64,000 nucleotides of DNA, from contig JAZDPX010000045.1 of NCBI GenBank assembly GCA_043797125.1, forward strand, positions 8,338-72,337, read 5' to 3'. This document shows, piece after piece, positions 1 to 53,300 of this stretch. Made by a program: the position numbers and the translations under genes. Under the pieces are notes generated by a model, which was not told where the DNA came from, ran no database searches, and saw only the letters and a list, made by a program, of their open reading frames with translations. The stretch comes from Candidatus Omnitrophota bacterium (lineage in GTDB: Bacteria > Omnitrophota > Gorgyraeia > JABMRG01 > JAFGKX01). Each line of letters starts with the position of its first letter. Position 1 is the first letter of the stretch.

Positions 1-3000
1 CAATATCAGAGATGCTGTTGCCGCGTAAAGAAAGCACGCCTGCAGTAATAGTCAGGGTGCCGTCTATGGCTAAAGCATTACCTAAACGGAATTCATCTGT
101 GGCGTTAGCAGCATTAATAGTTAAATGATAGTAGTCGCTGGCCCCGAAGTCCTTTATAACATATGGCCCGCTGCCTGCGCCCTTATACTCCCAGATACCG
201 GAATCAATGTCATTGCTATCCCAGGGAATATTTTCGCTACCCACTAGTTTTAAGGTACCATTATTGGTAATAGAAAGGCTGTTAGAATTAGTAACGCTCT
301 GGCCATTAAGGTCTAATGTCCCGGCAGTAATGGTTAAGCCAGCGTCAATTTCTAAGGCGTTACCGCTTAATTGTAAACTGCCTCCGGCTTTATTAATTTC
401 AATGTTTTGGAAATCCCGGCTGTCTCCTGTACCTCCACTATTAATGGTGGCAGCGCTTGCGGTAGTAAAAGTTACTGTCCCGGAAGAAGTAAAACTTCCA
501 TCAGCATTATCCCAGCTGCCGCGCACCGTTACGGCATTTGCTTCTGTGTTAAATGTGCCGTTATTTTCTATGCTATCTAAGCTCACTGCTGCGCCAGGAG
601 TGTAAGTTTTCCCTGAGTCAATCCAAACTTCATAACCCGTATCAAAAGTAAGTAGGCCTCCGGGAAAAGTATAATGTATATCGTCATCCCCAGAGTTATC
701 CGCTGTGGCTAAGAGATTATTAGTCAGTGGCCCGGCTGACTCATGGCGTAGGACAATTTTGCTAGTATACATTTCCAAGCCGGTAATTGAAGCAGCCGTA
801 GAAGCAGACAATGCTTGAGAAATCAGATTCGCCTCATAAGAGCCACTATCATCAATAAATAAAAGAATGGTATCATCTGCGTTGATACTTGCATAAAACC
901 AGAAAAATTTTCCATCTGAATTAGTCACGGCTGTAGTTTTAGCTGCGCCATTTACTGAAAGCCCCACAGTGACATCTGCTCCCACAGTGGCGCTCTTGGC
1001 TTCATCAGTATAAATAGTGCCGGAAATTGTTGGATTAAACTTAGTCACAAAAACATCGTAGTTTCCATTTTGCGTCTCATCATAAGCCCCGGCGGTAGTG
1101 GGATAATTGGTAGCCGCATTATAGGTATAACCGGTGATATAGACATTGCCAGCAGAATCTATGGCAATGCCACGGCCATAGTCATTATCGCTTCCTCCGA
1201 GAAAAGTAGAATAAGTAAGGCTTGCGCCCGTAGAGCTTAATTCACTTAAGAAAGCATCATCAACACCATTGTGTGTAGTGTCGTAGGCGCCGCCAGTAGT
1301 AGGATAATCAATGCCAGCATCAGCAGTATATCCGGTGATATAAGCATTGCCTGAAGAGTCTATGGCAATAGCATAGCCATAGTCGGCACCGCTTCCTCCG
1401 ATAAAAGTAGAATAAGTAAGGGCAGTACCGGTAGAATTAAGCTTGGTCACAAAGACATCATTACTGCCATTATGGATCTCATCATAAGCGCCGCCAGTAG
1501 TAGGATAATCAATGCCAGCATCAGCAGTATATCCGGTGATATAGGCATTACCTGAAGAGTCTATGGCAATAGCATAGCCATAGTCATCGCCACCTCCGCC
1601 GAGAAAAGTCGAATAGACAAGAGTGGTACCAGTAGAATTAATTTTAGTCACAAAGGCATCAACGTTACCATTCTGCCACTGATCATAGGCTCCGCCAGTG
1701 ATGGGATAATCAGTGGCTGCGTCAGCAGTGCGTCCGGTAATATAGGCGCATCCTGAAGAGTCTACAGCGATAGCTAAACCATAATCTTGACCGCTTCCGC
1801 CGAGATAAGTAGAATAAGTTAAAGCGCTACCAGCAGCATTAAGTTTAGTAATAAAGGCATCGACGCTGCCATTATAGACGGTATCATAGGCTCCGGCGGT
1901 AGTAGGATAACCGCCTGTACCGTATCCGGTAATATAGGCACAGCCAGAAGTATCTACGGCAATAGCATAGCCGCGATCAGTACCACCGCTGCCTCCGATA
2001 TAAGTAGAATAGACTAAGGCGGTACCGGTAGAATTAAGCTTGGTCACAAAAACATCTATCCAGCCATTCACTGTAGGATCATAAGCTCCGCTAGTGGTGG
2101 GAAAATCGTCGCTGAATGTATCTCCGGTGATGTAAGCATTGCCCGAAGAATCTATGGCAATGCCGCGTCCGCGGTCAGTATAGCTTCCACCAATAAAGGT
2201 AGAGTAAATAATGGCTGTGCCGGTAGCATTAAGTTTAGTCACAAAAGCGTCGTGGAAATTATTATGTGTCTGATCATAGGCTCCGGCGGTAGTAGGATAA
2301 TCGCTACTTGACGTATATCCGGTAATATATATATTACCGGATGAATCTACTCTCATAGCAAATCCATAGTCACCATTGCCTCCGCCAAGGAGAGTAGAAT
2401 AAGTCAGCGCAGTACCGGTAGAATTGAGCTTGGTTACAAAGACATCATTGCCGCCATTATGCGTCCGGTCATAAGCTCCGACAGTGGTGGGGTAATCTGT
2501 TGCCGCGTCAGCGGTGTAACCGGTGATATAGGCATTGCCGCCCGGGGAATCTATTACTATGCCATAGCCATAGTCATCACCACTTCCTCCGATAAAAGTA
2601 GAATAAGTCAGCGCAGTGCCGGTAGAATTAAACTTGGTCACAAAGACATCATAACCGCCGCCATTATTTGCCTGATAAGGATTCAGGGTGGGAAAGTTTG
2701 TTGAGCCTGTGTATCCTGTTACATAGGCATTCCCTGCGGCATCTATGGCAATGCCACGTCCGTAATCATTACCACTCCCGCCGATAAGAGTAGAATAGGT
2801 AAGCGCAGTGCCGGTAGAATTAAACTTGGTCACAAAGACATCCTCGCCGCCATTATGCGTGGTATCATAAGCGCCTCCGGTAGTGGGATAATCAGTCTCT
2901 GTATCAGCAGTATATCCGGTAATATAGGCATTGCCTGAAGAATCTACGACGATAGCCCTACCATAGTCACCAACAGTTCCAAGCTGACCACGCCCTCCTA

Positions 3001-5902
3001 TAAAAGTAGAGTAAGATAAACTGCTTGCGTCAGCGCTAAACTTAGTTACAACAGCAGTATCGCCATAGCCAAAAGTATCATAGGCTCCACTAGTGGTGGG
3101 ATAATCATAGCTATGCGCATATCCGCTGATATAAGCATTGCCTGCGGAATCTATGGCTAAAGCATATACTTCATCTTGCGCAGAGCTATAACTCCCTCCG
3201 ATAAAAGTAGAGTAGCCTAACGTAGGATCAATCACAAGAGGGTAATTCGTGTCATAATTATTTACACTAAATCCATAGCTATTATCCGAAAGCAGGATGA
3301 ATCCAGCGCTAACTTCCTGCTTTATCCCGGCAATATTCTGATAAGCATAGGGCTTGGCTTCTTTTAACTGGCCAAACTCAGTATCAATGATGAGGTTGCC
3401 GGATTCGTCAATGATTAAACTATTTACTCCTTCATAACCTAACTTTATATTTGCGTAATCTGCTCCGGAAGCTACTACAAATTCTGATTCTAAGTTTCCG
3501 TTTTTAGAGCTATAACTTAAATCCACTCCCTCATAGAGCCCCTGATAGATAATCTTATAATAGGAAGCGATATTGGTTTGGTGCTGACTAGAGTCATTAC
3601 CGATGAGGTAGTTAAAGATGGTGTTGGTAGATAGGCCGGGGGTTATCGAACTAGAGGAACTTGCGCCAAGGAAGCTCAGCCGGATATTTAATATATTGTA
3701 AGATTCTACGCTATTCTGTTGAGAGAGGCTATAAAGGATAAATTGATTTGTAAAGTAAATACGGCTCTCTTTAAAATAAATATAGAACTTAACTTGGGAA
3801 TCAGAGATCTGGCCCTGATTAGCAATAAAGTAAAGCGGGATGGAGCCAAGGTTAAGCTCGCCGTAACTTACTTCGCCAGAAGGTTTATCAACATCTATGT
3901 TGCCATAGATAGTGCCTGCGGAGTAATCAATGCGCTGGTTGCCCTCGCCCGCTAAACTGATATCTGCGTATATCCAGGAATTGGGATTCTGTAAAATGAG
4001 ATCACCTTTTAAAAAAACCTTGGAGGCTAAATCAGCGCTGCTGCCAAAAGAAGTATAGCTTTCGCCTTTAATAGTTAAATCTCCGCTAATAGTAAGGCTG
4101 CGCCTTAAGGTAATGGTACCTGTGTAGCCATCTATGGTAAATTGAGCGACTGTGCCTTGGAATGTCGCGTCAATTATTGAGTCTTTGTTTGTTTGAGGGT
4201 ATTGAGAGGTATTACCGTTAAATGTAACTATTGAATATTGGGTGGGGATTGTGCCTGTGTCCCAGTTGTTTGGGTCTGACCAGTTTTGCGTTTGGCCTTG
4301 GCCTGTCCAGATGGGGTCTAGATCCCAGTTGGTATTATTGCCAAGAGAGTCAGAATGTATTGCTTTAATAGGTGGAGCTCTGTTGTCTATACCGGGAGCT
4401 CTTGCGTTGTAACAATCCTGTATTAATATGTATGCTATATCAGTCTCGCCTTCCGGAATAATGCTATATTGCTTACCCGGTATTAAGGATTTTAACTTAA
4501 GGAGTTCGGCATATTTACCTTTTAAGGTTAATATGCCTTTTATGGTCTGGGTTGTGTCCGGGTCAAACTTAACTTCTTTGTTGGGTTCTTGGATGGTCAG
4601 GTTATTGAATGTGTTTGAACCTTTTATTATTGTTGGTTTAGCTGATATAAAGAAGAAGTTTGAGCTTTGTGGGATAAAGTTACCAAAGCCGTTTAAGTCT
4701 TTAGATACTTCATAGATGGCGTTATTGGCATTTATTGTTACGCCGTAATCTATTGTTAATGAGCCTTGGGTTATTATTGCAGAGTTTGGATATTGATTAT
4801 AAACAGCTGGAGCGCCTGCCGGCTTAAAGGTAATATCGCCTGCTGATACAATATTGGCAATATGGCTTTCGCCTGAAGATTGTAAGGTAATATCGCCGTA
4901 TGTGGTGGTTTTAATGGTGGCGTTAGGTGCTTGTTGTATCGAGCCTTCGCCGTTAAGATCGTTATCAGCAAGGATGTTGAGGTCGCCGGAGTCTACTGTT
5001 AAATCATCATTGATGTGTATGTCTTTATCTGATGCTATGGTTGTATCGCCGCTAAATTCGCCTGAGGCTTGAATGTCCTGGTTTGCTACTAACTTAATTA
5101 CGCCGTCTTCTTCTACTAGCTTAGTTGCCTTAACTATACCTGTGTTATTTACCGCATATTCAAAGATATCGTCCGCGGTTTTGGCGGACATAAATACCTG
5201 ATGGCCAACAAGCTCGCCTGAGTTCTTTATTTGATCTTTTACTGTGTTGCCTTCGGAATCGATTATTTTTTCAGTTACTTCTTCATTTACCTCAACTGAC
5301 ATCAGGGCTTGCGCATCAATGCTAACAGTTACCCTAACTCCGCATGATAGAGTCACTACTCCTAATTTAGCTGTAATTATGCCTGAATTATCAACCGCTC
5401 CTGCTAATAAAGCTGCGTTGCTTTCAGTTTCTATTCGGCCTTGATTTTTAATTAAAGCTGGGGCTACGCTCTTTTCTTGATCAAATATATAATTTGCTTC
5501 TATAAAGTTATTTGTTGATATATCCAGCGTCGAGGCTACAAGGGAGCCTGCATTAACACTGGCTGTGTCATGGAAATTAATGCCATTGGGGTTTGTTAAA
5601 AAAAGAATCCCGTTAGCATTGAGTGAGCCGTATATGTTTGTAGGATCTGAATCTAATATTCTGCTTAAAAGGGTTGCGTCCTGGGAAGGTTGGATAAAGT
5701 TTACTGTTTCATTGGTTTGAATATCAAAGGAATTAAAATTAATAACTGTCTTATCGTCTGCTGTTATATTAAGGGTAGTTTGATCCTGCTGGAAAGTCGC
5801 GCTGCCTTCTTCTATATTCCAGCCCTGCGGGAGGGCATATAATAGGCTAACAGAATGAAAACTAAATAAATATATAAGTATAAATATTATTTTATTTTTC
5901 AT
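1..5902 (-). CDS. Large TpsA-like (filamentous-haemagglutinin-type) secreted exoprotein, partial (C-terminus beyond left window edge); signal peptide + TPS secretion domain + beta-helix region + ~20 SBBP beta-propeller repeats
   Basis: Minus-strand ATG at 5902 (revcomp of cat 5900-5902). Translation starts MKNKIIFILIYLFSFHSVSLLYALPQGWNIEEGSATFQQDQTTLNITADDKTVINFNSFDIQTNETVNFIQPS...LNANGILFLTNPNGINF, a classic TPS/haemagg_act domain with NPNG motif. Sampled downstream segments stay open in the same frame. The ORF track lists no minus ORF starting at 5902, which implies no in-frame stop down to position 1. Region ~600-3250 encodes repeated units such as YDEIHNGSNDVFVTKLNSTGTALTYSTFIGGSGADYGYAIAIDSSGNAYITGYTADAGIDYPTTGGA (SBBP repeat signature). 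Confidence 0.8.
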   Translation of the reverse strand, partial: MKNKIIFILIYLFSFHSVSLLYALPQGWNIEEGSATFQQDQTTLNITADDKTVINFNSFDIQTNETVNFIQPSQDATLLSRILDSDPTNIYGSLNANGILFLTNPNGINFHDTASVNAGSLVASTLDISTNNFIEANYIFDQEKSVAPALIKNQGRIETESNAALLAGAVDNSGIITAKLGVVTLSCGVRVTVSIDAQALMSVEVNEEVTEKIIDSEGNTVKDQIKNSGELVGHQVFMSAKTADDIFEYAVNNTGIVKATKLVEEDGVIKLVANQDIQASGEFSGDTTIASDKDIHINDDLTVDSGDLNILADNDLNGEGSIQQAPNATIKTTTYGDITLQSSGESHIANIVSAGDITFKPAGAPAVYNQYPNSAIITQGSLTIDYGVTINANNAIYEVSKDLNGFGNFIPQSSNFFFISAKPTIIKGSNTFNNLTIQEPNKEVKFDPDTTQTIKGILTLKGKYAELLKLKSLIPGKQYSIIPEGETDIAYILIQDCYNARAPGIDNRAPPIKAIHSDSLGNNTNWDLDPIWTGQGQTQNWSDPNNWDTGTIPTQYSIVTFNGNTSQYPQTNKDSIIDATFQGTVAQFTIDGYTGTITLRRSLTISGDLTIKGESYTSFGSSADLASKVFLKGDLILQNPNSWIYADISLAGEGNQRIDYSAGTIYGNIDVDKPSGEVSYGELNLGSIPLYFIANQGQISDSQVKFYIYFKESRIYFTNQFILYSLSQQNSVESYNILNIRLSFLGASSSSSITPGLSTNTIFNYLIGNDSSQHQTNIASYYKIIYQGLYEGVDLSYSSKNGNLESEFVVASGADYANIKLGYEGVNSLIIDESGNLIIDTEFGQLKEAKPYAYQNIAGIKQEVSAGFILLSDNSYGFSVNNYDTNYPLVIDPTLGYSTFIGGSYSSAQDEVYALAIDSAGNAYISGYAHSYDYPTTSGAYDTFGYGDTAVVTKFSADASSLSYSTFIGGRGQLGTVGDYGRAIVVDSSGNAYITGYTADTETDYPTTGGAYDTTHNGGEDVFVTKFNSTGTALTYSTLIGGSGNDYGRGIAIDAAGNAYVTGYTGSTNFPTLNPYQANNGGGYDVFVTKFNSTGTALTYSTFIGGSGDDYGYGIVIDSPGGNAYITGYTADAATDYPTTVGAYDRTHNGGNDVFVTKLNSTGTALTYSTLLGGGNGDYGFAMRVDSSGNIYITGYTSSSDYPTTAGAYDQTHNNFHDAFVTKLNATGTAIIYSTFIGGSYTDRGRGIAIDSSGNAYITGDTFSDDFPTTSGAYDPTVNGWIDVFVTKLNSTGTALVYSTYIGGSGGTDRGYAIAVDTSGCAYITGYGTGGYPTTAGAYDTVYNGSVDAFITKLNAAGSALTYSTYLGGSGQDYGLAIAVDSSGCAYITGRTADAATDYPITGGAYDQWQNGNVDAFVTKINSTGTTLVYSTFLGGGGDDYGYAIAIDSSGNAYITGYTADAGIDYPTTGGAYDEIHNGSNDVFVTKLNSTGTALTYSTFIGGSGADYGYAIAIDSSGNAYITGYTADAGIDYPTTGGAYDTTHNGVDDAFLSELSSTGASLTYSTFLGGSDNDYGRGIAIDSAGNVYITGYTYNAATNYPTTAGAYDETQNGNYDVFVTKFNPTISGTIYTDEAKSATVGADVTVGLSVNGAAKTTAVTNSDGKFFWFYASINADDTILLFIDDSGSYEANLISQALSASTAASITGLEMYTSKIVLRHESAGPLTNNLLATADNSGDDDIHYTFPGGLLTFDTGYEVWIDSGKTYTPGAAVSLDSIENNGTFNTEANAVTVRGSWDNADGSFTSSGTVTFTTASAATINSGGTGDSRDFQNIEINKAGGSLQLSGNALEIDAGLTITAGTLDLNGQSVTNSNSLSITNNGTLKLVGSENIPWDSNDIDSGIWEYKGAGSGPYVIKDFGASDYYHLTINAANATDEFRLGNALAIDGTLTITAGVLSLRGNSISDI
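600..3250 (-). repeat. Tandem ~120-123 nt coding repeats (about 20 units) encoding SBBP-type beta-propeller repeats inside the TpsA-like gene
   Basis: Near-identical nucleotide units recur directly in the sequence, e.g. ...ggctccgccagtagtaggataatc...gcagtatatccggtgatata(a/g)gcattgcc...gaatctatggcaat...gtagaataagt.... Each unit translates on the minus strand to the Asp/Gly/Tyr-rich SBBP motif. Confidence 0.85.
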
Positions 5903-7247: not shown

Positions 7248-8987
7248 CTACACTTCTATCTGCAGCGCAAACGTAAAAGTGCTCGCCCCGGCTCCGGAGA
7301 TAGGCTTATTATCATCCATTTTTATCGCGTCTGCCCATTCGAGGCGAAGATAAAAATTGTCCGAAAAGCGGCACCTTACGCCGCCGCCTAAACCCATTAA
7401 AAACTTTTCTTTTTTAGTCTCACTTACTGTTGGATTTATAATCCCGGCATAGCCAAAATCGGCAAAAAGCACAGGCTGTATCTGTTTCTGCAAAGGCGCG
7501 TCTTGGCCTCTTACCTTCCATTGCTTGGGAATAAGATACATTGGAAATATCCAATCAATATTTAAATTTGCCCCGTAATCTCCGAGGAAGTCGCCTTCGG
7601 GAAAGCCCCTTACAGAATTTGCGCCGCCTAACTGAAATTGCTCCGCGGACGCAAGCGTGTGCGATGCAAGCTGAAGCCTTGAGCGCATTGCAATATAGCT
7701 GTCAAAAGGCATTAATTGAATGCGCCTTATAGAGTGTTCGTATTTAACAAAGGCCTTACCCGAGCCGTCCCTGCTTAATGTATTCTCATTGCGATTAGAC
7801 GCCCCTAAAAAATGCTCCGTGCCAAAGGTAAGCCTCGGAGCAAATACGGTCTGGCCTCCGAGGAAATCGTTTGCCGTAAAATCAAAACCAATATACGGCG
7901 AGCGCATCTCATCGTTAGTCGTAAGGTTATCCGCCATATATTTTTTTATGCTTTTTATTTCCAACCCTGCGTCTATATAGGCTTGAAATTTCTCTGACAA
8001 ATAAAGTTCTTTTGTAATATGCGGAGTAAGCATTTTTGTATTGCCTGTGATATCAAGGTATTTATATTCTTTCCCCACTCTCATAAAAAAATATACGGCA
8101 TCAAGCCCGAATTTTGTGCCGTAGGTATCAATCGGCAAAGAATAGCTTAAAGACTCGCCTAAAGAATCTTTAGTTGCAAGACTGCTTATGTATACGGAAT
8201 CCATTCGATTCAGCATATTTGAACTGCGCACGGAAACCGAATCTCTCCATCTTCCCACAAGCCTCGTTCCCTGGTTATCGCAGGAATTGCCGATATGGTG
8301 CGGGACGCTATCCGCAACCTTTAATGTAACATCTGATGTGCCTGGTTCCTTGCCGGCAGAAAGCATCGCCCTTATCGCGAGGTCGGGATTTTGGTTTAGA
8401 CTTAATATGTCTTTCTGGACCTTGTTGATATTTAAAATTTTATTTTTTGCCGTGTGAAAATACTTTTTAAGCAGGCCCACTGTAAACCATTTGTTGCCGT
8501 CTATAATTAACTCGCCCATCTTGCCTTCAGCCGCCGCGATTTCTATGTTACCGTCTTTTATCTCCTGCTCCGGTATATACGCGGTGCTGGTGATATAACC
8601 TTCCTGTTTATATTTTAATTTTATCTTATCAATTATAACCTGGAGGCCTTGAAAGGTTACCTGCTTATCAATATAGGGTTTATAGAGCGGAGCGAGGTCT
8701 TTTTCGCTAAAAATGGTGGAGCCCGTTATCTTAACCGATTTTAGGACAAAGGACGGGCCTTCCTGGGGAGGCTGCGGCTTTTCTTCTTCTACTTGTATTT
8801 CCGGGGTTTCGGCCTTTTCTTTCTCGAGTTGCTGTTTTTTCTGCTGCTGTTCTTCGTCAAAGCGCTCGGCCTGCGCGCCTATATCCTGGCCCGGGGGCTC
8901 TTGAGCAAAAGAAGGGCTAAGAAAAGAAAAAAACAAAGAAACTATAAACAATAAGATAAATATGCTTATGTGTTGAAGCTTAGTCAT
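7248..8987 (-). CDS. Two-partner secretion outer-membrane transporter TpsB (ShlB/FhaC/HecB family, POTRA + beta-barrel)
   Basis: 579 aa with an N-terminal signal peptide. POTRA-like segment: SFVLKSVKITGSTIFSEKDLAPLYKPYIDKQVTFQGLQVIIDKIKLKYKQEGYITSTAYIPEQ. C-terminal beta-barrel region ends in an aromatic residue pattern (...TFTFALQIEV). Same orientation as and upstream of the TpsA-like gene. Confidence 0.85.
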   Translation of the reverse strand: MTKLQHISIFILLFIVSLFFSFLSPSFAQEPPGQDIGAQAERFDEEQQQKKQQLEKEKAETPEIQVEEEKPQPPQEGPSFVLKSVKITGSTIFSEKDLAPLYKPYIDKQVTFQGLQVIIDKIKLKYKQEGYITSTAYIPEQEIKDGNIEIAAAEGKMGELIIDGNKWFTVGLLKKYFHTAKNKILNINKVQKDILSLNQNPDLAIRAMLSAGKEPGTSDVTLKVADSVPHHIGNSCDNQGTRLVGRWRDSVSVRSSNMLNRMDSVYISSLATKDSLGESLSYSLPIDTYGTKFGLDAVYFFMRVGKEYKYLDITGNTKMLTPHITKELYLSEKFQAYIDAGLEIKSIKKYMADNLTTNDEMRSPYIGFDFTANDFLGGQTVFAPRLTFGTEHFLGASNRNENTLSRDGSGKAFVKYEHSIRRIQLMPFDSYIAMRSRLQLASHTLASAEQFQLGGANSVRGFPEGDFLGDYGANLNIDWIFPMYLIPKQWKVRGQDAPLQKQIQPVLFADFGYAGIINPTVSETKKEKFLMGLGGGVRCRFSDNFYLRLEWADAIKMDDNKPISGAGASTFTFALQIEV

Positions 8988-9595: not shown

Positions 9596-9638
9596 GGTCT
9601 AAATTTTACCACACATCCCTCCCTCCCGCAACATAAAT

Positions 9639-9697
9639 GGGGACGGTTCACCCCTGAGCGTGGGGACAGTTCACCCTCGTGCTTGGAAACTGTCCCC
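9639..9697. repeat. Upstream REP-like doublet flanking the transposase: GGGGACGGTTCACCCC (9639-9654), GGGGACAGTTCACCC (9662-9676), plus partner AACTGTCCCC (9688-9697) forming a hairpin followed by a T-run
   Basis: Read directly from the sequence. These are inverted relative to the two downstream copies (GGGGTGAACCGTCCCC). Confidence 0.8.
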
Positions 9698-9787
9698 TGC
9701 AAAATTTAGTGTCTTTTTTTAAAATTATTTGCCTAAAAAAATCGTCTATTATAGTGAGGGGTAAAATAAAAAAGGAGGGATATAGCC

Positions 9788-10357
9788 ATGCCACGAATAC
9801 CAAGATTCTGCTATGAAACCGGAATATTTCATGTTATGAAACGAGGCAATAATAGACAGGTTATCTTTAAGGCCAATGCCGATTTTAGAAGATATCTATA
9901 CCTTCTAAAAAAATATAAACATAGGTATAAATTTAAATTATATGCATATTGCCTGCTGCCAAACCATATCCATCTTTTGCTAGAATGCCAGACGATAAAA
10001 ACACTGTCTAAGGCAATGCAGGGCATAGGCCTTTCCTACTGCCATTGGCACAAAAAACAATATGAGTTTACTGGGCATTTGTTCCAGGGTAGATTCAAAA
10101 GCTCGCCCATAGGCAAAGAGAGCTATCTGTTAGGGTGCGCTAGATATATTGAGCTTAACCCTGTTCGCTCTGGCCTTGTATTTGACCCTAGCGATTACCC
10201 CTGGAGCAGCTATAATGCCTATGCATTTGGCAAGGCGGATTATCTGGTAGACGTTCTACCAGAATATTTGGGGTTTGGTCATAACGATTGCGAACGACAA
10301 AAACAATATCGTGAGTTTGTGCTCGCAGAAAGGCCTGGGGACACTTTACAAGCGTAG
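9788..10357 (+). CDS. IS200/IS605-family Y1 (HUH) transposase, REP-associated tyrosine transposase (RAYT)-like
   Basis: 189 aa. HUH motif LPNHIHLLLE. Catalytic Tyr region YIELNPVRSGLV. Typical N-terminus ...GIFHVMKRGNNRQVIF. SD aaggaggg precedes the ATG at 9788. Flanked by inverted REP-like doublets. Confidence 0.85.
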   Translation: MPRIPRFCYETGIFHVMKRGNNRQVIFKANADFRRYLYLLKKYKHRYKFKLYAYCLLPNHIHLLLECQTIKTLSKAMQGIGLSYCHWHKKQYEFTGHLFQGRFKSSPIGKESYLLGCARYIELNPVRSGLVFDPSDYPWSSYNAYAFGKADYLVDVLPEYLGFGHNDCERQKQYREFVLAERPGDTLQA

Positions 10358-10395
10358 GGGTGAACCGTCCCCAAGCGTAGGGGTGAACCGTCCCC
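10357..10395. repeat. Downstream REP-like doublet: GTAGGGGTGAACCGTCCCC x2 (10357-10372 and 10380-10395), inverted relative to the upstream copies
   Basis: Sequence reads ...agcGTAGGGGTGAACCGTCCCCaagcGTAGGGGTGAACCGTCCCCat. Each copy begins with the GTAG tetranucleotide typical of REPs. The first copy overlaps the transposase stop codon. Confidence 0.8.
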
Positions 10396-10405
10396 ATATT
10401 TTTAC

Positions 10406-10434
10406 TTGCTAAAGGGGAAGATATATCCTATAAT
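10406..10434 (+). promoter_or_regulatory. Candidate promoter TTGCTA-N17-TATAAT for the downstream chaperone gene
   Basis: ttgcta at 10406-10411 and tataat at 10429-10434. Followed by aggag (10446-10450) and ATG at 10456. Confidence 0.35.
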
Positions 10435-10455
10435 ATGCGAAACATAGGAGATTAT

Positions 10456-17686: not shown

Positions 17687-17726
17687 CCCCTACGTAGCGG
17701 AGCCTTAAGGCTCCGCTACGTAGGGG
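17687..17726. repeat. Palindromic element copy A (extended 40-nt perfect palindrome CCCCTACGTAGCGGAGCCTTAAGGCTCCGCTACGTAGGGG) between sua5-ptp and glyA
   Basis: Read from the sequence. The core GTAGCGGAGCCTTAAGGCTCCGCTAC is shared with seven other copies. Confidence 0.9.
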
Positions 17727-18838: not shown

Positions 18839-18878
18839 CCGTAGCGGAGCCTTAAGGCTCCGCTACGGTTGTGGATAA
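18839..18878. repeat. Palindromic element copy B (core 18841-18866 + flank GGTTGTGGATAA) between purE and sua5-ptp
   Basis: Sequence is ccGTAGCGGAGCCTTAAGGCTCCGCTACggttgtggataa. Confidence 0.9.
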
Positions 18879-20670: not shown

Positions 20671-20734
20671 TCATCCACAACCGTAGTCATCCACAACCGT
20701 AGCGGAGCCTTAAGGCTCCGCTACGGTTGTACAA
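20671..20734. repeat. Palindromic element copy C with both flank arms (ATCCACAACC-core-GGTTGTacaa) and a 16-nt tandem duplication of the left arm (tcatccacaaccgtag x2), between purM and purD
   Basis: Sequence is tagtcatccacaaccgtagtcatccacaaccGTAGCGGAGCCTTAAGGCTCCGCTACggttgtacaa. Core at 20699-20724. Confidence 0.9.
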
Positions 20735-30197: not shown

Positions 30198-30234
30198 GTA
30201 GCGGAGCCTTAAGGCTCCGCTACTTTGTGGATAA
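30198..30234. repeat. Palindromic element copy D (core 30198-30223 + tttgtggataa) in the 5' leader of the V-ATPase operon
   Basis: Read from the sequence. Confidence 0.9.
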
Positions 30235-34849: not shown

Positions 34850-34887
34850 GTAGCGGAGCCTTAAGGCTCCGCTACGGTTGTGGATAA
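34850..34887. repeat. Palindromic element copy E (core 34850-34875 + GGTTGTGGATAA); pyrF reads into it and stops at the central TTAA
   Basis: On the coding strand, TTA TCC ACA ACC GTA GCG GAG CCT TAA translates to L S T T V A E P stop. Confidence 0.9.
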
Positions 34888-35562
34888 CTCCCTTGCAGCT
34901 TTTGCCGGGTCAATAGCTTCAGTTATCGGCCGTCCTATAACAATAAAATCCGCGCCCTTTTTTAAGGCCCACTGCGGGGTAGCGATTCTTTTCTGGTCAA
35001 ACGCCGCGCTTGTTGCGGGCCGAACCCCGGGGGTTACAATTACAAAATTCCTGCCGCACGCAGCTCTTACCGCGCTTATTTCCTGCGGCGAGCACACAAC
35101 GCCGTCTGCGCCTGATTGCTTCGCTAACTTCGCCAAATACATAACCTGCCTTATTGGCGGACGACTTATGCCCAATTTGTTTAAAGCGCTTTTATCCATG
35201 CTTGTCAATACTGTTACAGCCAAAAGAACAGGCCTTCTGTCTTTTGGTAATGATTTTATCGCGCCTGCAGCTGCCTTAATCATCTCGCTGCCGCCTGATG
35301 CGTGTATATTAAGCATAATAGGATGCAGTTTGCAGGCAGCTTTAATCGCTTTTGCGACGGTGTTTGGTATGTCGTGGAATTTTAAATCTAAAAATACATC
35401 TGCGCCGGCGGCCTTTACCATTTTCACCGCTTCAGGCCCCGCAGCTGTAAATAGCTCGCTTCCGATTTTGAAGATTTTTATGGTCGGATAGAGTTTATCG
35501 ACGAGCTCTTTTGCCTTCTCTAGGGAATCTACGTCAAGCGCTACAATAATTTTGTTATTCAT
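34861..35562 (-). CDS. pyrF: Orotidine 5'-phosphate decarboxylase
   Basis: MNNKIIVALDVDSLEKAKELVDKL...KIFKIG. The C-terminal 8 residues (LSTTVAEP) and the stop codon are supplied by the palindromic repeat element. Confidence 0.9.
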   Translation of the reverse strand: MNNKIIVALDVDSLEKAKELVDKLYPTIKIFKIGSELFTAAGPEAVKMVKAAGADVFLDLKFHDIPNTVAKAIKAACKLHPIMLNIHASGGSEMIKAAAGAIKSLPKDRRPVLLAVTVLTSMDKSALNKLGISRPPIRQVMYLAKLAKQSGADGVVCSPQEISAVRAACGRNFVIVTPGVRPATSAAFDQKRIATPQWALKKGADFIVIGRPITEAIDPAKAARELSTTVAEP

Positions 35563-35570
35563 AATCTTAA

Positions 35571-35608
35571 GTAGCGGAGCCTTAAGGCTCCGCTACGGTT
35601 GTGGATAA
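35571..35608. repeat. Palindromic element copy F (core 35571-35596 + GGTTGTGGATAA); pyrD reads into it and stops at the central TTAA; pyrF ATG 9 nt downstream
   Basis: PyrD and PyrF share an identical C-terminus STTVAEP encoded by the element. Confidence 0.9.
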
Positions 35609-36520
35609 TTTCCCTACTATATCCCTTACCCTGGTAAACCCTTTTCTCTGCAAATATCTCTCGATGCCCTCCGCTGCCGCTATTGCTGCCCGCGGATTCA
35701 CAAAATTCGCAGTGCCTATCTGAACAGCTTGCGCGCCGCACAATAAAAATTCAATGGCATCCTGGCCTGTCATTATACCGCCTATTCCTATTACCGGTAT
35801 TTCGACGGCTTTTGCCGTTTCCCAGACAATGCGCAGCGCTATCGGCTTTATCGCCGGGCCGCTTAATCCGCCTGTTATATTGCCCAGGCGCGGCTTTTGC
35901 GTTTCTATATCAACTGCCATGCCTCTGATTGTGTTTATAACTGAAATCGCGTCAGCTCCTGCTTTTTCAACAGCCTTTGCTATTTCGCAAATATCTGCTA
36001 CGTCGGGGGAAAGCTTGACTATAACTGTCTTTTTTGTGTTTTTCTTAACCACCTTTGTAACAGCGGCAGCTGCTTTCGCATCCTGCGCAAACAACTTGTG
36101 ACTTGTGACTTGGTGACGTGGTGACCCTACATTTGGGCACGATATATTCACTTCAACCCCCGCCACCCCCGCAATATCTAACAACCCCGCCAACCTGCCA
36201 TATTCCTCTATTTTCTCGCCTGCGATGCTTACAACAACAGGGATGCCTATGTTTTTCAAGTATGGCAGTTTAGTCCTTATAAAATCCTCAACGCCCTCGT
36301 TTTGCAAGCCTATGGCATTGAGCATTCCTGCTGTTGTCTCCCAAATCCGAGGCGGGATATTGCCCTGCCTCGGGTTTAATGTAACGGACTTGGTTATAAC
36401 AGCGCCTAATTTTTTTAAATCTATTAAATCCTTAAATTCCTCGGCATAACCAAATGTGCCTGAGGCAACCATTACGGGATTTTGTAATTTTATTTTTCCG
36501 ATTTTAACCGATGTGTCCAC
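35582..36520 (-). CDS. pyrD: Dihydroorotate dehydrogenase (class 1B) catalytic subunit
   Basis: MDTSVKIGKIKLQNPVMVASGTFGY... Same repeat-derived LSTTVAEP C-terminus. Confidence 0.9.
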   Translation of the reverse strand: MDTSVKIGKIKLQNPVMVASGTFGYAEEFKDLIDLKKLGAVITKSVTLNPRQGNIPPRIWETTAGMLNAIGLQNEGVEDFIRTKLPYLKNIGIPVVVSIAGEKIEEYGRLAGLLDIAGVAGVEVNISCPNVGSPRHQVTSHKLFAQDAKAAAAVTKVVKKNTKKTVIVKLSPDVADICEIAKAVEKAGADAISVINTIRGMAVDIETQKPRLGNITGGLSGPAIKPIALRIVWETAKAVEIPVIGIGGIMTGQDAIEFLLCGAQAVQIGTANFVNPRAAIAAAEGIERYLQRKGFTRVRDIVGKLSTTVAEP

Positions 36521-39199: not shown

Positions 39200-39225
39200 G
39201 TAGCGGAGCCTTAAGGCTCCGCTAC
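39200..39225. repeat. Palindromic element copy G (core only) between pyrC and flavodoxin gene
   Basis: GTAGCGGAGCCTTAAGGCTCCGCTAC followed by tgttttcattg, a divergent flank. Confidence 0.9.
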
Positions 39226-43082: not shown

Positions 43083-43120
43083 GTAGCGGAGCCTTAAGGC
43101 TCCGCTACTTGTGTGGATAA
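43083..43120. repeat. Palindromic element copy H (core 43083-43108 + ttgtgtggataa) between rsmI and lpxA
   Basis: Read from the sequence. Confidence 0.9.
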
Positions 43121-50300: not shown

Positions 50301-53300
50301 ATCACAGCTTCGTGCGCATTCGCTTCAAGCGCGCCTGTTTTTACGAAGTTTCCGACAGCTTCCCTGGCCTTATCTTGTATGCCGGGGGTATCCCAGCGTA
50401 CGCCCCCCATGCCAGTCGGCAGCGGCGGGGCGGTGGGCGTTATCCGCGCTGCTATAAAGCAACTATCAATAGAATATTTCGGCTCATAACTGAATGGATG
50501 CGTTTTGCTTAAGGGAAGTATTTCGTAATTTTTTGAGGCAATCACGGTCTGAATTAGGCCAAGATTTGAGTAAATTGCGGCGCTCGTAGGTATAAGCACT
50601 GCCTCGCAGTTTAAGGCCTTGGCTAATTCCTTGGCGTAATCAATAAGCTTGTTATATATATCATCCGCGGCAACCCCGGTTAACAGGCTCGTGCTTGGGT
50701 TAATGCCGGGAAGAACAAGGTATTTTTTGTTGTTATCTTCTATAATTAACACATACATGCCGCCTTGGGCAATACCATTCGAATCAAATATGATTATATT
50801 GATAAAGTTGGGATTATTCCAAAGCCTTTCATCTTCTGCGGTGCATGCGCCCATATTCAGGCCTGCTACGCCGTGGGCTTTTCTCTTTGAGGCAACGAAT
50901 CTTAACGCAATTTTTTCTTGCGATTCCTGGAATTCATATTTCCTCTCCACTTCAGCCTGCATGTGTTCATATTCACTTCCCTGCAAGAGCTTGGTTATGA
51001 TGGCTGCTTCTTTGCCTTGCTGCATCTTAAAGGTTGTGGATTTTAATTCGTTTTGTATTGATTGCTCGTCTGTTTTATCTTTTACTTTTTCCCATATCGC
51101 ATCAGCCGTATAATCGTCATCTATTCTTAGCGCCTTCTTGATTAATTGTATCAGCTGACGCTCATCCTTCTTTTCGCGAGCTTTAAGTATGTTAAATACT
51201 GTTTTAGCGGCGCCTTCTGGTCTTTCTATTCTGACGCTGAGCATCTTGTCATACGACTCTTGATTTTGCTTTTTATACGCAGCAATACATTCACCGGCTA
51301 GATCTCGCAAGGTGTCCCCCATAAATACATTTATATCGATAATATTCCCAATTATTGCCAATGATTCTGGCAGCATCCTGTTGCCGGAACTCCTGTAGTA
51401 GCGATATAGTTGTTCCAATAAATCTTCCCTGACATTGTGTAGGCCCCCCATTTTCCACTGCTCAAGAAGCTGTCCGCCTAAACTGGCTGCTTTTTCTTTG
51501 TCCGGCGCTAACAAGGCTTCCCCGTTTACCTTGGCAATAACCTGCCGGATAGTTCGCCACGGACTAGCATCTAATGGCATGGACGGGTCCTTTAAGATAT
51601 ATTGGCCGACAGATATATCGATCGGTTTTGTTTCTTGCAAATGCGCTGGTATCTCCTTTGTGTCTTGCGGCCTGTCGGCTCTATTTTTGTACATCGCAAA
51701 ATAACTTCCCCTTTGGACGGTTACTGCGGGCGGGAATATATATAATAGCATTGTGCTGAACAACGGGTCTTTGTCTGCTTTGGCTGTGTCGCCTTCTAAT
51801 ATCTCATTATGTATGCGCTTGCACCTTTCTATGAGCTCATTTAGCTTCCTTGGATTGTTCTTATATGCTTCATATACGCTAACTATGGCATAGGGGTTTT
51901 CTTTTAGGAAAGCGTTGATTTGGTCTTTTTCTTTTGATATTGGTTTTGAGATTACGCCTTGTTTAACGCCCAAAAGGAGGAAGTTTTCCAATAAATCATA
52001 TGCCCTTATGCCGTGTGTTTGTATAAATTCTTTAATAAAAGCCAGGTCAGCCTCTGATTCTATCGCGCCAGCAGCAAACAGCTTTTTCGTAACTCCGAGA
52101 CAAAGGAACGCGCCCTGGCGCTGCTTAAAGAATATGGGTTTGAAAAATATTTTCCAGGATTGGGGCCATTTCCTCAATATGGGTTCTGCTTCATGTATCT
52201 GCTCTATTAGTTGATATTCAACGCCTGCGGATAATGTTAGCGCTTGTATTAAATCGTATCCTATTTTAATAAAGTCGTCTTTTGTATTAATAGCCGAGTC
52301 AAAAAGATAAAACATTCTGGCAAAATGTTCTGTATTTGCTGCTGTCTCTTTAAGGAATCCCGTTAGCTTTGCAAAAAAGGTTGGCTCTGCTATATCATCA
52401 AGCCCTGTCTTTGTTATTACAAAAAGGCCTATAAGAATACTGACAAGCCGTTCCTGTTTTAGGCCTGTGGCGGTTTTAAGTGCTTCTGTTACGCTGGCTA
52501 TCTCGTCCTGCGCTTTGGCAAATAACCGCTTATCAAATATTCCTACTCTTGCGTGCTCTGCGGTTATGGCTGCTAAGGCTTCGGCTCTATCAAGCTTATT
52601 GGTTATTTTTTCTGCTGTGGTTATCGCATCTTTAAACTTTCCTGCCTTTGTCTGCTCTGCTGCTACGCCTTTAAGGGCTAATGATTTATTATCGGTATCG
52701 GTGATGATGCTTGCTGTAGCGAGGGCGTCATTAAACATCCCTGCCTTTGCCTGTTCTATTGCCAGCTCCTTAAGGATGGCTGGTTTAAGATGAGCGCCAT
52801 CTATGGTTTTTGCTGTAGCGAAGGCATCATTAAACGTATTTTTTGCTTCATCAAGCATGCCTGCTTTTGCCTGCTCTGCTGCTATGCCTTGAAGGGCTTC
52901 TGCTTTATGTTTGGTATCGGTGATGGTGCTTGCTGTGGCGAGGGCGTCATTAAACGTATTCTTTGCTTCATCAAGCATGCCTGCTTTTGCCTGCTCTGCT
53001 GCTATCTCTTTAAGAGCTAATGATTTATAATAGGCGTTGGTTATGATGCTTGCTGTGGCGATGGCGTCATCCAGCTTGCCTATCTTTGCAAACCATTTTG
53101 CAATAACGATGAGGGCTTCTGGTTTGTCATCGGTATAGGTGCTGGTTTTTGCTGTGGCGAGGGCATCTATTAATGCTTTGTTTGCGTCATCCATCCTGCC
53201 TGCTTCTGTAAACCCTTCTGCGACAGCGGCGAGGGCTTTTGCTTTGTCAACGGCTTCGGTAATGGTGTTTGCTGTGGCGAGGGCATCTTCAAACATCCCA

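Follow-up and report, generated by a model that had tools for sequence, protein, structure and literature searches.

[quoted passage not shown] In these loci the left arm is found some tens of nucleotides ahead of the gene, the right arm is located at or over its 3' end, and the units of the repeats sometimes form dimers or clusters (PMC3733652). The enzymes, TIRYTs, belong to TnpAY1 subclass 2.1 (Quentin et al. 2018, PMC6006769), which is the same group as the Group 1 RAYTs of Bertels et al. 2017 (PMC5581495). Subclass 2.1 proteins have NH[V/I]H, W[EQ]/FQ and YIELNP motifs and end in an HTH-like domain, their median length being 238 aa; they occur at low copy number with no abundant REP and no REP-like secondary structures (PMC6006769). 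TIRYTs represent the largest branch of RAYT-like enzymes, the literature holds no biochemical work on any of them, and the term TIRYT itself occurs in just two papers. Two other groups of HUH enzymes are close enough for comparison: the E. coli REPtron (TnpAREP, PDB 4ER8, REP/BIME; Ton-Hoang 2012; Messing 2012; Corneloup 2021, PMC8266576) and the TnpA proteins of IS200/IS605 elements (IS608, ISDra2).

The window analysed here, a 64-kb stretch of DNA from an uncultured Omnitrophota genome, carries a 761-bp element with four copies of GGGGTGAACCGTCCCC around one HUH/Y1 gene, inverted with respect to each other on the two sides (> > gene < <), which is the layout given in an earlier note on this DNA. 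This locus is very likely a TIRtron, composed of a TIRYT gene (TnpAY1 subclass 2.1; Group 1 'RAYT' of Bertels) and its cognate TIRs. Since TIRtrons are a described type, it represents a new example rather than a new kind of system, from a host phylum absent from the published survey (PMC3733652). The element has the following features (positions in the window).

9637-9697, no strand: left arm of the 61-nt inverted repeat, in which a 7-nt spacer separates the outer from the inner unit and a partial inverted unit follows
9639-9654, minus strand: outer-left TIR unit; the plus strand reads GGGGACGGTTCACCCC, an exact match to the 16-mer
9662-9677, minus strand: inner-left TIR unit; the plus strand reads GGGGACAGTTCACCCT, with two mismatches to the 16-mer and an exact GGGGWSAS
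9685-9697, plus strand: partial third unit, inverted, GGAAACTGTCCCC; GGGGACAG at 9690-9697 on the minus strand
9729-9755, plus strand: putative promoter-like region (TTGCCT, about 15 nt, TATAGT; conserved CGTC-TATTATA box)
9774-9778, plus strand: Shine-Dalgarno sequence GGAGG, 9 nt 5' of the ATG; AAAGGAGG is conserved among relatives
9788-10357, plus strand: probable TIRYT gene, encoding an intact 189-aa HUH/Y1 nuclease of the short form
10337-10397, no strand: right arm of the 61-nt inverted repeat, covering the last seven codons (PGDTLQA) and the stop codon
10337-10349, plus strand: partial inverted unit within the ORF, GGGGACACTTTAC, mirror of 9685-9697
10354-10372, plus strand: inner-right unit with GTAG head, GTAGGGGTGAACCGTCCCC; 16-mer at 10357-10372, TAG stop codon at 10355-10357
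10377-10395, plus strand: outer-right unit with GTAG head, 23 nt past the inner-right unit; 16-mer at 10380-10395

A search of the 64-kb window for GGGGTGAACCGTCCCC with up to three mismatches gave four matches, all at the transposase locus; shuffled sequence predicts 0.13 matches, and none of 100 shuffles attained four. The copies repeat with a period of 23 nt on the left as on the right, and only one of the four full units differs from the other three, which are identical. Exact GGGGWSAS is present in GGGGACAG at 9662 and (as reverse complement) at 9690 and in GGGGACAC at 10337, while GGGGACGG, one position off this motif, occurs three times. For GGGGWSRS, 6 of the 16 matches in the window fall within the 761-bp element. 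The inverted symmetry is longer than the earlier note gave, extending over 61 nt per arm (9637-9697 and 10337-10397, 84% complementary), and each arm includes an additional third, incomplete unit that points the other way (9685-9697 and 10337-10349).

The left and right units have different heads. GTAG is found only in the downstream copies (10354-10357 and 10377-10380), the inner of which includes the TAG stop codon of the ORF; the left-end heads are degenerate (CTCAG, ACGA), with ACGCTCAG in the outer-left unit against AAGCGTAG in the right units. The right-hand units (AAGCGTAGGGGTGAACCGTCCCC) look REP-like in their GTAG head and their small stem-loop, although the stem next to GTAG has only 4 bp. 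The outer-left unit forms a mini stem-loop of GGGG/CCCC with an 8-nt loop, seen as a 4-bp hairpin in the minimum-energy fold. The gene type, the long TIRs with GGGGWSAS, the positions of both arms and the doubled units are those of described TIRtrons (PMC3733652). In contrast to these, each arm here is a composite of 2.5 units, the right-hand units have a GTAG head that doubles as stop codon, and the protein has no distal tail (…RGRPRK). That GTAG is kept by the right-end units only counts against the TIRtron reading.

The 189-aa ORF product matches Pfam Y1_Tnp (E = 3e-14) and contains the catalytic motifs N59-H60-I61-H62, F99-Q100 and Y120-IELNP. In alignment, Y120 falls on Y115, the catalytic residue of E. 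coli TnpAREP (PDB 4ER8), and isoleucine occupies the u position of HuH, for which Table 1 of PMC6006769 lists V. All 11 invariant residues of the family are kept, including H60, H62 and Y120, and only two near-invariant positions depart, both conservatively (M57L, W99F). BLASTP against eight published TIRYTs gave 34-40% identity (104-146 bits) versus 22-26% (33-53 bits) against three canonical RAYTs, and the family HMM scored TIRYTs at 177-274 bits and RAYTs at 45-69 bits; the protein belongs to the TIRYT family. The motif signatures and the BLAST comparison with published sequences, rather than a full phylogeny (the neighbour-joining tree comprised TIRYT and RAYT references only), fit an assignment of the protein to subclass 2.1.

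The protein lacks the C-terminal tail of about 40 aa (ending RGRPRK) present in most homologues, its alignment stopping at …YREFV. At 189 aa it is shorter than the subclass median (238 aa), and it has none of the HTH-like domain reported for the C-terminus in that subclass (PMC6006769). Because this tail is absent, the enzyme could be less active than most TIRYTs. A Pfam scan of the homologues' C-terminal tails gave no HTH and no DnaA_C match; at the sensitivity of a Pfam scan, the HTH reported in the literature for the tail was not reproduced.

The gene had been described earlier as RAYT-like rather than as an ordinary IS200/IS605 tnpA, and this distinction holds. Both enzyme types are HUH/Y1 proteins from loci with small subterminal hairpins at the ends, but the protein has the class 2 Y---NP motif (YIELNP) in place of Y---Q, exceeds at 189 aa the core of about 150 aa that makes up subclass 1.1 TnpA, and is encoded by a gene that is single-copy in the window and has no adjacent tnpB (the neighbours are aldolase and ppiD genes). 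The family profile also favours TnpAREP (8e-11) over ISDra2 TnpA (2e-5), and an NCBIfam scan at E <= 0.01 returned the RAYT model only and no IS200 model. The gene is best annotated as a TIR-associated Y1 nuclease and not as an IS200 transposase.

The further proposal of a REPIN/RAYT system survives in part, as the enzyme comes from a RAYT-related branch but is no canonical RAYT. A canonical REPtron (Nunvar 2010; Bertels and Rainey 2011), in which a domesticated RAYT maintains an abundant genome-wide REP/REPIN population that includes the flanking doublets, would explain the inverted layout, the right-end units, whose small stem-loop has a 5' GTAG at its foot, and the best NCBIfam and PDB matches, which are RAYT/TnpAREP. 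It would also be in line with the ends of the short-form relatives L094, L017 and L021, where an imperfect palindrome comes after GT[AG]G, and with the dispersed units of some relatives. This reading is nevertheless distinctly unlikely. The score to NCBIfam REP_Tyr_transpos (NF047646) is 69.4 bits, below the cut-off of 80, and the protein is much nearer to TIRYTs than to RAYTs. Beyond the locus, the 64-kb window contains no extra copy of GGGGTGAACCGTCCCC at up to three mismatches, while another repeat has eight copies there. Unlike host-specific REPs, the motif is conserved between genomes whose proteins share 40-50% identity, and published surveys did not find REP-like sequences for subclass 2.1. 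The flanking sequence, previously taken for REPs, is the family-conserved TIR core GGGGWSAS, and within the 64 kb nothing marks it as a dispersed REP specific to the host. The E. coli REPtron shares with this locus an HUH enzyme with its tyrosine on a Y---NP helix, a gene bracketed by inverted substrate copies and a 5' GTAG beside the (here right-end) stem-loop. It differs in protein sequence (identity only about 25%, in keeping with the score under the NCBIfam cut-off); here the stem has 4 bp without a bulge, the window shows no dispersal of the units, and the repeat core is conserved across phyla instead of being host-specific.

The repeats are built from a 16-nt stem-loop unit with a GGGGWSAS core, present as two direct copies and one partial inverted copy per end. 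If E. coli TnpAREP and IS608 TnpA are a guide, the HUH/Tyr enzyme would bind these units as folded single-stranded DNA and would nick and rejoin them via a 5'-phosphotyrosine link, which may have yielded the local unit duplications and the dispersed copies in other genomes. A mode of action like that of the E. coli REPtron, in which folded single-stranded DNA is cut and joined in a strand-specific manner, is likely, with catalytic steps borrowed from the sister family. Also against the TIRtron reading, the two ends show the unit on opposite strands, which does not fit the single-strand excision of IS200/IS605 elements, whose ends lie on one strand.

The element is located between an aldolase gene (Aldolase_II) and ppiD (PpiD), both transcribed away from it. 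In the related loci L096 and L097 the gene order aldolase(-), ppiD(+), radical-SAM(-) is kept, the gap measures 155 nt and a Y1 gene is missing; the flanks align at about 65% after removal of the element. Since a related genome keeps the aldolase-ppiD neighbourhood without it, the element is accessory DNA. An autonomous IS, in which the entire 761-bp unit (TIRs and gene) would be active and copy itself as IS200-family elements do, would account for its absence from this syntenic site. Second paralogues close to the genes of L011, L035, L032, L067, L074 and L077, the element's own promoter-like box and ribosome-binding site, and the near-identical duplicates in Group 1 (6.3%, with some plasmid copies; Bertels, PMC5581495) agree with such an element. 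However, it is present as a single copy in the window, its ends lie on opposite strands unlike those of IS200/IS605, and the paralogues of the relatives are divergent, not identical copies. At 90% identity the protein forms a cluster of one member from one contig, its nearest homologue being 53% identical, and therefore there is no sign of recent spread. The G+C content of the element (0.426) equals that of its host (0.438 in the 64-kb window), giving no compositional sign of recent acquisition. Overall, an autonomous IS is unlikely here.

The family HMM found no further Y1 gene in a six-frame translation of the window. A scan for AGGGGTGAACCGTCCCCA in a genome-contig collection without the source genome gave 10 single matches in unrelated taxa, which is chance level. 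With a G+C content that matches its surroundings and no sign of dispersal in the 64 kb, the element resembles a long-standing resident of the source genome that is present once.

The putative promoter at 9729-9755 received no call in a simple promoter scan because its spacer is under 16 nt; in alignment, six of eight short-form relatives carry a comparable box equally far from the ATG. The hairpins could in principle be ordinary terminators or insulators of the neighbouring genes, their inverted symmetry being incidental, and a terminator scan did find the outer units terminator-like when read outward; in addition, a ppiD promoter-like site (10406-10434) abuts the right end. Yet with both neighbours transcribed away from the element such hairpins would have nothing to terminate, and the stems are just 4-6 bp long. 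The motif is also found on both sides of homologous genes in dozens of settings that are unrelated to one another, and this family-wide conservation already contradicts a role as transcription signals, which is extremely improbable.

A hairpin with a T-run had been noticed upstream of the gene. The hairpin itself is real, having a 10-bp stem (9662-9671 with 9688-9697) in DNA folds of both strands, and it results from pairing of the inner-left unit with the partial inverted unit, with a mirror image at the right end. The T-run is about 16 nt past the stem and the terminator scan gave no call, so the 9662-9697 hairpin is not a terminator but part of the inverted repeat; its mirroring at the other end and the outward transcription of both neighbours also led us to reject it as one.

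Among 66 related loci, a GGGGWSAS-type motif was found upstream on the plus strand in 41, near the stop codon on the minus strand in 40, and in both places in 31, with chance expectations of about 8% (upstream) and 6% (near the stop). Stems of at least 5 bp enclose the motif in 35% of arms versus 11% in shuffles, and stems of at least 6 bp in 21% versus 3%, while the stem sequences vary from locus to locus. Two or more units in the same orientation on one or both sides are present in 25 of 59 loci. Family-wide conservation thus covers the repeat core, where it lies and which way it points, and the unit is frequently a small hairpin and frequently doubled. In some relatives the units are also dispersed, singly and as REPIN-like inverted dimers: L045 has nine extra copies, among them three such dimers at 42 nt, L083 has six and L059 five. 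Given that the core often lies in a small hairpin both here and in relatives, the published view that subclass 2.1 has no REP-like structures (PMC6006769) may be too strong. Together with roughly 80 relatives, this locus provides a compact substrate definition (a 16-23-nt unit, a conserved core and a short stem, plus a GTAG head in one clade), which is directly usable in cleavage and strand-transfer assays.

An ORF about 40 aa shorter than most homologues, whose last seven codons are repeat-encoded, could also be a decaying remnant, in which insertion of a TIR unit or a deletion at the right end removed the C-terminus and left an inactive protein with fossil repeats. The degenerate left-end heads and the impaired activity of E. 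coli TnpAREP after larger C-terminal deletions point in this direction. Against it, the reading frame is unbroken, it keeps every invariant residue and departs at near-invariant positions only by M57L and W99F, and the identity of three of the four full units speaks against long neglect. Short forms (186-199 aa) moreover constitute a clade of several independent intact genes with their own well-kept inverted repeats, for example L094 (33-nt repeat, 97% complementary) and L093. Decay is thus a very unlikely explanation. Two features are modestly new: the protein's place in this short-form sub-lineage without a C-terminal tail, and the REP-like GT[AG]G heads on its repeat units. In the wider family, the GGGGWSAS-type core lies in the loop of hairpins with variable stems, and it is a tentative possibility that the short-form clade links TIRYT terminal repeats to classical REPs, its end units being GT[AG]G-tagged small or imperfect palindromes with such a core. 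Subclass 2.1 enzymes would then be hairpin-processing enzymes like RAYTs, with TIRs and REPs as homologous substrates, and the lack of the element at the syntenic site of the related genome would point to true mobility of the whole unit.

The abundance of a second repeat in the window, the 26-nt palindrome GTAGCGGAGCCTTAAGGCTCCGCTAC, was confirmed, with eight perfect copies from 17694 to 43108. The palindrome forms a GTAG "double-foot" REP family of its own, for which the window contains no cognate gene; the absence of another Y1 gene there leaves no enzyme to be named for it. Viral contigs and 94 retrieved loci gave no matches to the palindrome. The earlier note had seen a GTAG head common to the flanking repeats and the palindrome, and proposed either two REP classes or a diverged relationship. 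The shared head is true of the two downstream copies and not of the degenerate left ones. We rejected kinship of the two repeats, as GTAG was judged a generic REP tag, and two classes are the better of these options because the repeats are otherwise unrelated. The palindrome is to be annotated as part of a different system, having in common with the TIR unit GTAG alone, plus GTAGGGGT at one copy.

In the window, which comes from a Candidatus Omnitrophota MAG, the ORF at 9788-10357 (plus strand) encodes a 189-aa protein with the N-terminus MPRIPR, which matches the Pfam family Y1_Tnp (E = 3e-14). The closest solved structure is E. coli TnpAREP (4ER8), with the catalytic Y115 aligned to Y120. 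The key motifs of the protein are NHIH (the HUH motif, N59-H60-I61-H62), FQ and YIELNP. It is the only member of its 90%-identity cluster (n=1), and its nearest homologue is 53% identical. All eleven residues invariant in an alignment of 40 homologues (H15, R19, H60, H62, G96, R102, K104, Y120, E122, N124 and P125) are retained, and the protein departs from only two near-invariant positions, both conservatively (M57L and W99F). Homologues are typically 220-240 aa long, most having a C-terminal tail with RGRPRK, which is absent from this protein and from a minority of homologues (186-199 aa); loss of the tail may lower or alter activity. The sole NCBIfam match, REP_Tyr_transpos, scored 69.4 bits, below the cut-off of 80, and the family profile matched TnpAREP at 8e-11 and ISDra2 TnpA at 2e-5. 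Thus, the protein lies on the RAYT (REP-associated tyrosine transposase) side of the Y1 superfamily, but is not a canonical-RAYT equivalog.

Among the 12 TnpAY1 subclasses into which Quentin et al. (2018, PMC6006769) divided the superfamily, subclass 2.1 (Bertels Group 1) has no associated REP, carries NHVH, W[EQ]/FQ and YIELNP motifs, and has a median length of 238 aa with an HTH-like tail. These authors treat it as equivalent to the TIRYTs described by Di Nocera et al. (2013, PMC3733652), RAYT-like genes bracketed by terminal inverted repeats (TIRs) rather than REPs. GGGGWSAS is common to many TIRYT terminal repeats, whose spacing from the gene is similar, and some of the repeats are members of moderately abundant families found as singles, dimers or groups (PMC3733652). 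The window protein shares FQ and YIELNP with subclass 2.1, but has NHIH instead of NHVH and, at 189 aa, is tail-less. In a direct comparison with reference proteins from Additional file 5 of Di Nocera et al., it was 34-40% identical to eight TIRYTs (over residues 1-150 to 1-189; BLASTP 104-146 bits), versus 22-26% to three canonical RAYTs from E. coli, P. fluorescens and S. maltophilia (33-53 bits). The family HMM scored 177-274 bits on the TIRYTs and 45-69 bits on the RAYTs. Together with the motifs and the GGGGWSAS-type units, this comparison makes it highly probable that the locus is a TIRtron (a TIRYT gene with its TIRs). The RAYT-like gene with inverted REP doublets of the earlier note was soundly observed and in part rightly interpreted, the protein being closer to TIRYTs than to RAYTs and scoring below the RAYT cut-off. 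The locus is a further example of an already described kind, with the tail-less short form and GTAG-headed arms of 2.5 units as minor distinctive features.

The 16-nt unit GGGGTGAACCGTCCCC (up to 3 mismatches) occurs four times in 64 kb, every copy at the TIRYT locus, against 0.13 matches expected from shuffling; no extra copies were found elsewhere in the 64-kb window. With two copies on the minus strand upstream and two on the plus strand downstream, the coordinates and the layout > > gene < < reported in the earlier note are correct.

Repeat units flanking the transposase gene
9639-9654, minus strand, outer-left unit, match to GGGGTGAACCGTCCCC, upstream of the gene
9662-9677, minus strand, inner-left unit, 2 mismatches to GGGGTGAACCGTCCCC, upstream of the gene
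9685-9697, partial unit of the left arm, opposite in orientation to the full units
10337-10349, partial unit of the right arm, opposite in orientation to the full units
10357-10372, plus strand, inner-right unit, match to GGGGTGAACCGTCCCC, downstream of the gene
10380-10395, plus strand, outer-right unit, match to GGGGTGAACCGTCCCC, downstream of the gene

The symmetry is longer than previously reported, forming a 61-nt inverted repeat (9637-9697 and 10337-10397, 84% complementary) whose arms each contain two direct units with a 23-nt period plus a partial third unit oriented the other way. The inner unit pairs with the partial unit in a 10-bp stem (9662-9697), which accounts for the hairpin of the earlier note; the T-run assigned to it begins about 16 nt past the stem, and a terminator scan made no call there. 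Since the hairpin has a mirror-image counterpart at the right end and the genes on both sides are transcribed outward from the element, it is part of the terminal repeat rather than a terminator. The right arm overlaps the final seven codons of the ORF (PGDTLQA), and the stop codon TAG is that of the first GTAG head. The head AAGCGTAG is present on the two right-hand units only, the left-hand heads being degenerate (AAGCACGA and ACGCTCAG, read outward). The units GGGGACAG and GGGGACAC contain exact GGGGWSAS, GGGGACGG is one position off, and six of the 16 GGGGWSRS matches in the window fall within the 761-bp element. The unit is a minimal stem-loop, GGGG-ACGGTTCA-CCCC.

One metagenome scan with the homologue alignment yielded 80 related loci (38-51% identity), 73 of which could be tested with a script that picked the best inverted repeat having one arm in the 300 nt upstream and the other around the stop codon. 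In about 50 of these 73 there is an inverted repeat of 15-35 nt, with the left arm 40-100 nt (occasionally to ~220 nt) before the ATG and the right arm at the stop codon or just past it. The repeats have GGGGTCAGA…, GGGGACAGA… or GGGGACGGTTC… as their core, and the third of these (L011, L013, L015, L041 and L059) is exactly the window core. Among 66 loci with enough flank, which also supplied the background rates, the relaxed motif GGG[GT]WS[AG]S was found upstream on the plus strand in 41 (~8% expected), its complement near the stop in 40 (~6% expected), and both in 31. This enrichment by position and orientation argues that the flanking motif, taken for a REP in the earlier note, is a conserved terminal repeat of the TIRYT family and not a host-specific repeat.

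Folding of the units was analyzed in 123 motif-anchored arms with shuffled flanks as control. Perfect stems of at least 5 bp around the motif core were present in 35% of arms (11% in shuffled flanks) and of at least 6 bp in 21% (3%), and no shuffle set reached the observed mean. Stem sequences vary by locus (for example, CAGAATCAATGG / CCATTGATTCTG; AATAAATGGG / CCCATTTATT; CGAAAATCGG / CCGATTTTCG; AGAAACCG / CGGTTTCT), whereas the loop, G(G)TCAGA or GGACAGA, is kept, as would be expected if the site is recognized in folded, single-stranded form. In 25 of 59 loci one side carries two or more units of the same orientation, and in L036, L038, L086 and the window both sides do. Extra unit copies were detected in L045 (nine in 5 kb, including three inverted dimers with a separation of 42 nt), L083 (six), L059 (five) and, one apiece, five other loci; six loci have a second, divergent TIRYT paralogue nearby. 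The L045 dimers are REPIN-like elements of a subclass 2.1 enzyme.

Inverted dimers of the local TIR unit in L045, GGGGTCAGAGAGCAAT…ATTGCTCTCTGACC (~60 nt, intergenic, near the TIRYT gene)
5727-5790
7294-7357
7528-7591

In L011 the second paralogue lies ~3.5 kb downstream with its own AAAGGGGACGGTTCTA unit ahead of it. The TIRYT gene adjoins RHS/YD-repeat (TEN_YD-shell) toxin-like genes in L011 (1001-4909, 7654-9375, 10131-10295) and L012 (3347-5530).

Enzymes of the HUH family cut and rejoin via a catalytic Tyr, and the TnpAREP enzymes of E. coli and relatives are described as binding REPs strand-specifically as folded single strands, recognizing the GTAG motif, the loop or a bulge. The locus and its family have an intact HUH/Tyr protein, conserved stem-loop units of fixed position and orientation, and duplication and dispersal of these units. 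By analogy with TnpAREP, its relatives and IS608/ISDra2, a TIRYT would act on its own units as TnpAREP does. IS608 excises as a whole-element single-stranded circle, but the ends of the window element present their units on opposite strands, so this is not the route one would first expect; an enzyme working on single units or on inverted dimers, as proposed for REPINs, would fit better. We consider the chances of this mechanism to be about even.

A rough NJ tree joins the window protein and L093 (186 aa) as a pair within a 13-leaf clade that includes most short forms (L012, L017, L021, L026, L055, L094 and the protein P0007).

Ends of short-form relatives (read outward)
L093: 23-nt-period doublet as in the window, with nine bases CAAGCGTAG before the unit identical to the window; stem TTGAGAA/TTCTCAA replacing GGGG/CCCC of the window around the core AACG(T)
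L094: both ends CGTAG-GGTGTCC-ATCCGCA-GGACGCC; 33-nt repeat, 97% complementary; stop codon within GTAG
L017: GTAG-headed unit
L021: GTGG-headed unit
L026: ATAG/GTGG-headed unit

In this small sample of eight loci the short-form ends look like small REPs, with GT[AG]G and an imperfect palindrome, and to this extent the REP idea survives, slightly beyond the description of subclass 2.1 in both papers (PMC6006769, PMC3733652). Short-form genes of this clade also have in common a promoter-like box, TT[GAC]CCT … CGTC-TATTATA with a T-rich spacer, which follows the left arm and lies 30-45 nt before the ATG (9729-9755 in the window; L017, L021, L026, L076 and L020 in alignment A3); it could be a promoter with an operator. 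From this box and a strong Shine-Dalgarno sequence, the element appears to bring its own expression signals.

Eight perfect copies of the 26-nt palindrome GTAGCGGAGCCTTAAGGCTCCGCTAC are spread over 17.6-43.1 kb, each in a short gap separating minus-strand housekeeping genes, which include pyrF, pyrD, purE and a Sua5-family gene.

Copies of GTAGCGGAGCCTTAAGGCTCCGCTAC (zero mismatches)
17694-17719
18841-18866
20699-20724
30198-30223
34850-34875
35571-35596
39200-39225
43083-43108

It starts with GTAG and ends with CTAC, a "double foot" REP type tied to subclass 2.4 (PMC6006769), and has nothing in common with the TIR unit except GTAG, which favours the two REP classes suggested earlier over a diverged relationship. 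No second Y1 gene was found in the window, so its enzyme, if any, is encoded elsewhere. A perfect DnaA-box 9-mer, TTATCCACA (TGTGGATAA on the plus strand), lies 3-4 nt from the palindrome in five of the eight copies, and these make up five of the window's six TGTGGATAA sites (0.37 expected by chance); a sixth palindrome copy has TCATCCACA instead, and the consensus is TTATCCACAACC-GTAG…CTAC. As DnaA_C-like tails were noted in subclass 2.1 (PMC6006769), a candidate partner would be a Y1 enzyme bearing a tail of this type and encoded elsewhere in the genome. The ORFs of pyrF (34861-35562) and pyrD (35582-36520), both on the minus strand, read through the DnaA-box-like segment into the palindrome and stop halfway along it, at the TAA of its TTAA loop (34861-34863 and 35582-35584); their last residues (…LSTTVAEP) are thus repeat-encoded, and their Pfam domains end ahead of them. 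At 17687-17726 the palindrome extends to a perfect 40-nt palindrome, CCCCTACGTAGCGG…CCGCTACGTAGGGG, with a flank, GTAGGGGT, identical to the head of the TIR unit, and TCATCCACAACCGTAG is tandemly duplicated at 20685-20715.

The element lies between a divergent class II aldolase gene upstream and a PpiD/SurA-like isomerase gene downstream. Loci L096 and L097 of a related Omnitrophota genome (PpiD 55% identical) have the same order, aldolase (minus), ppiD (plus) and radical-SAM activase (minus), with a 155-nt aldolase-ppiD gap containing no Y1 gene. Without the 761 bp, the window flanks align to this gap at ~65% identity, in an alignment that takes in the -10 box, the ribosome-binding site and the DNA adjoining the aldolase start. 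In L095, another relative, three unrelated genes occupy this position. Thus, the element is accessory DNA with presence/absence polymorphism, and its ordinary G+C content (0.426; window 0.438) points to gain here, or loss elsewhere, long ago. The right arm abuts a promoter-like site of ppiD.

Promoter-like site of ppiD
10406-10434, sigma-70-like, TTGCTA-17-TATAAT, rated good, starting 9 nt past the right arm

This site and AGGAG at 10446-10450 suggest ATG 10456, not 10435, as the ppiD start; the -10 box and ribosome-binding site are kept in the element-free relative. A ShlB/FhaC-type two-partner-secretion transporter gene (7248-8987, minus strand) overlaps the aldolase gene by 4 nt. Repeat arrays with ~201-nt (and 195-nt) periods at 1-3.2 kb (1029-3216) and 120-nt repeats at 52.6-53.8 kb (52569-53846) probably encode repetitive surface proteins.
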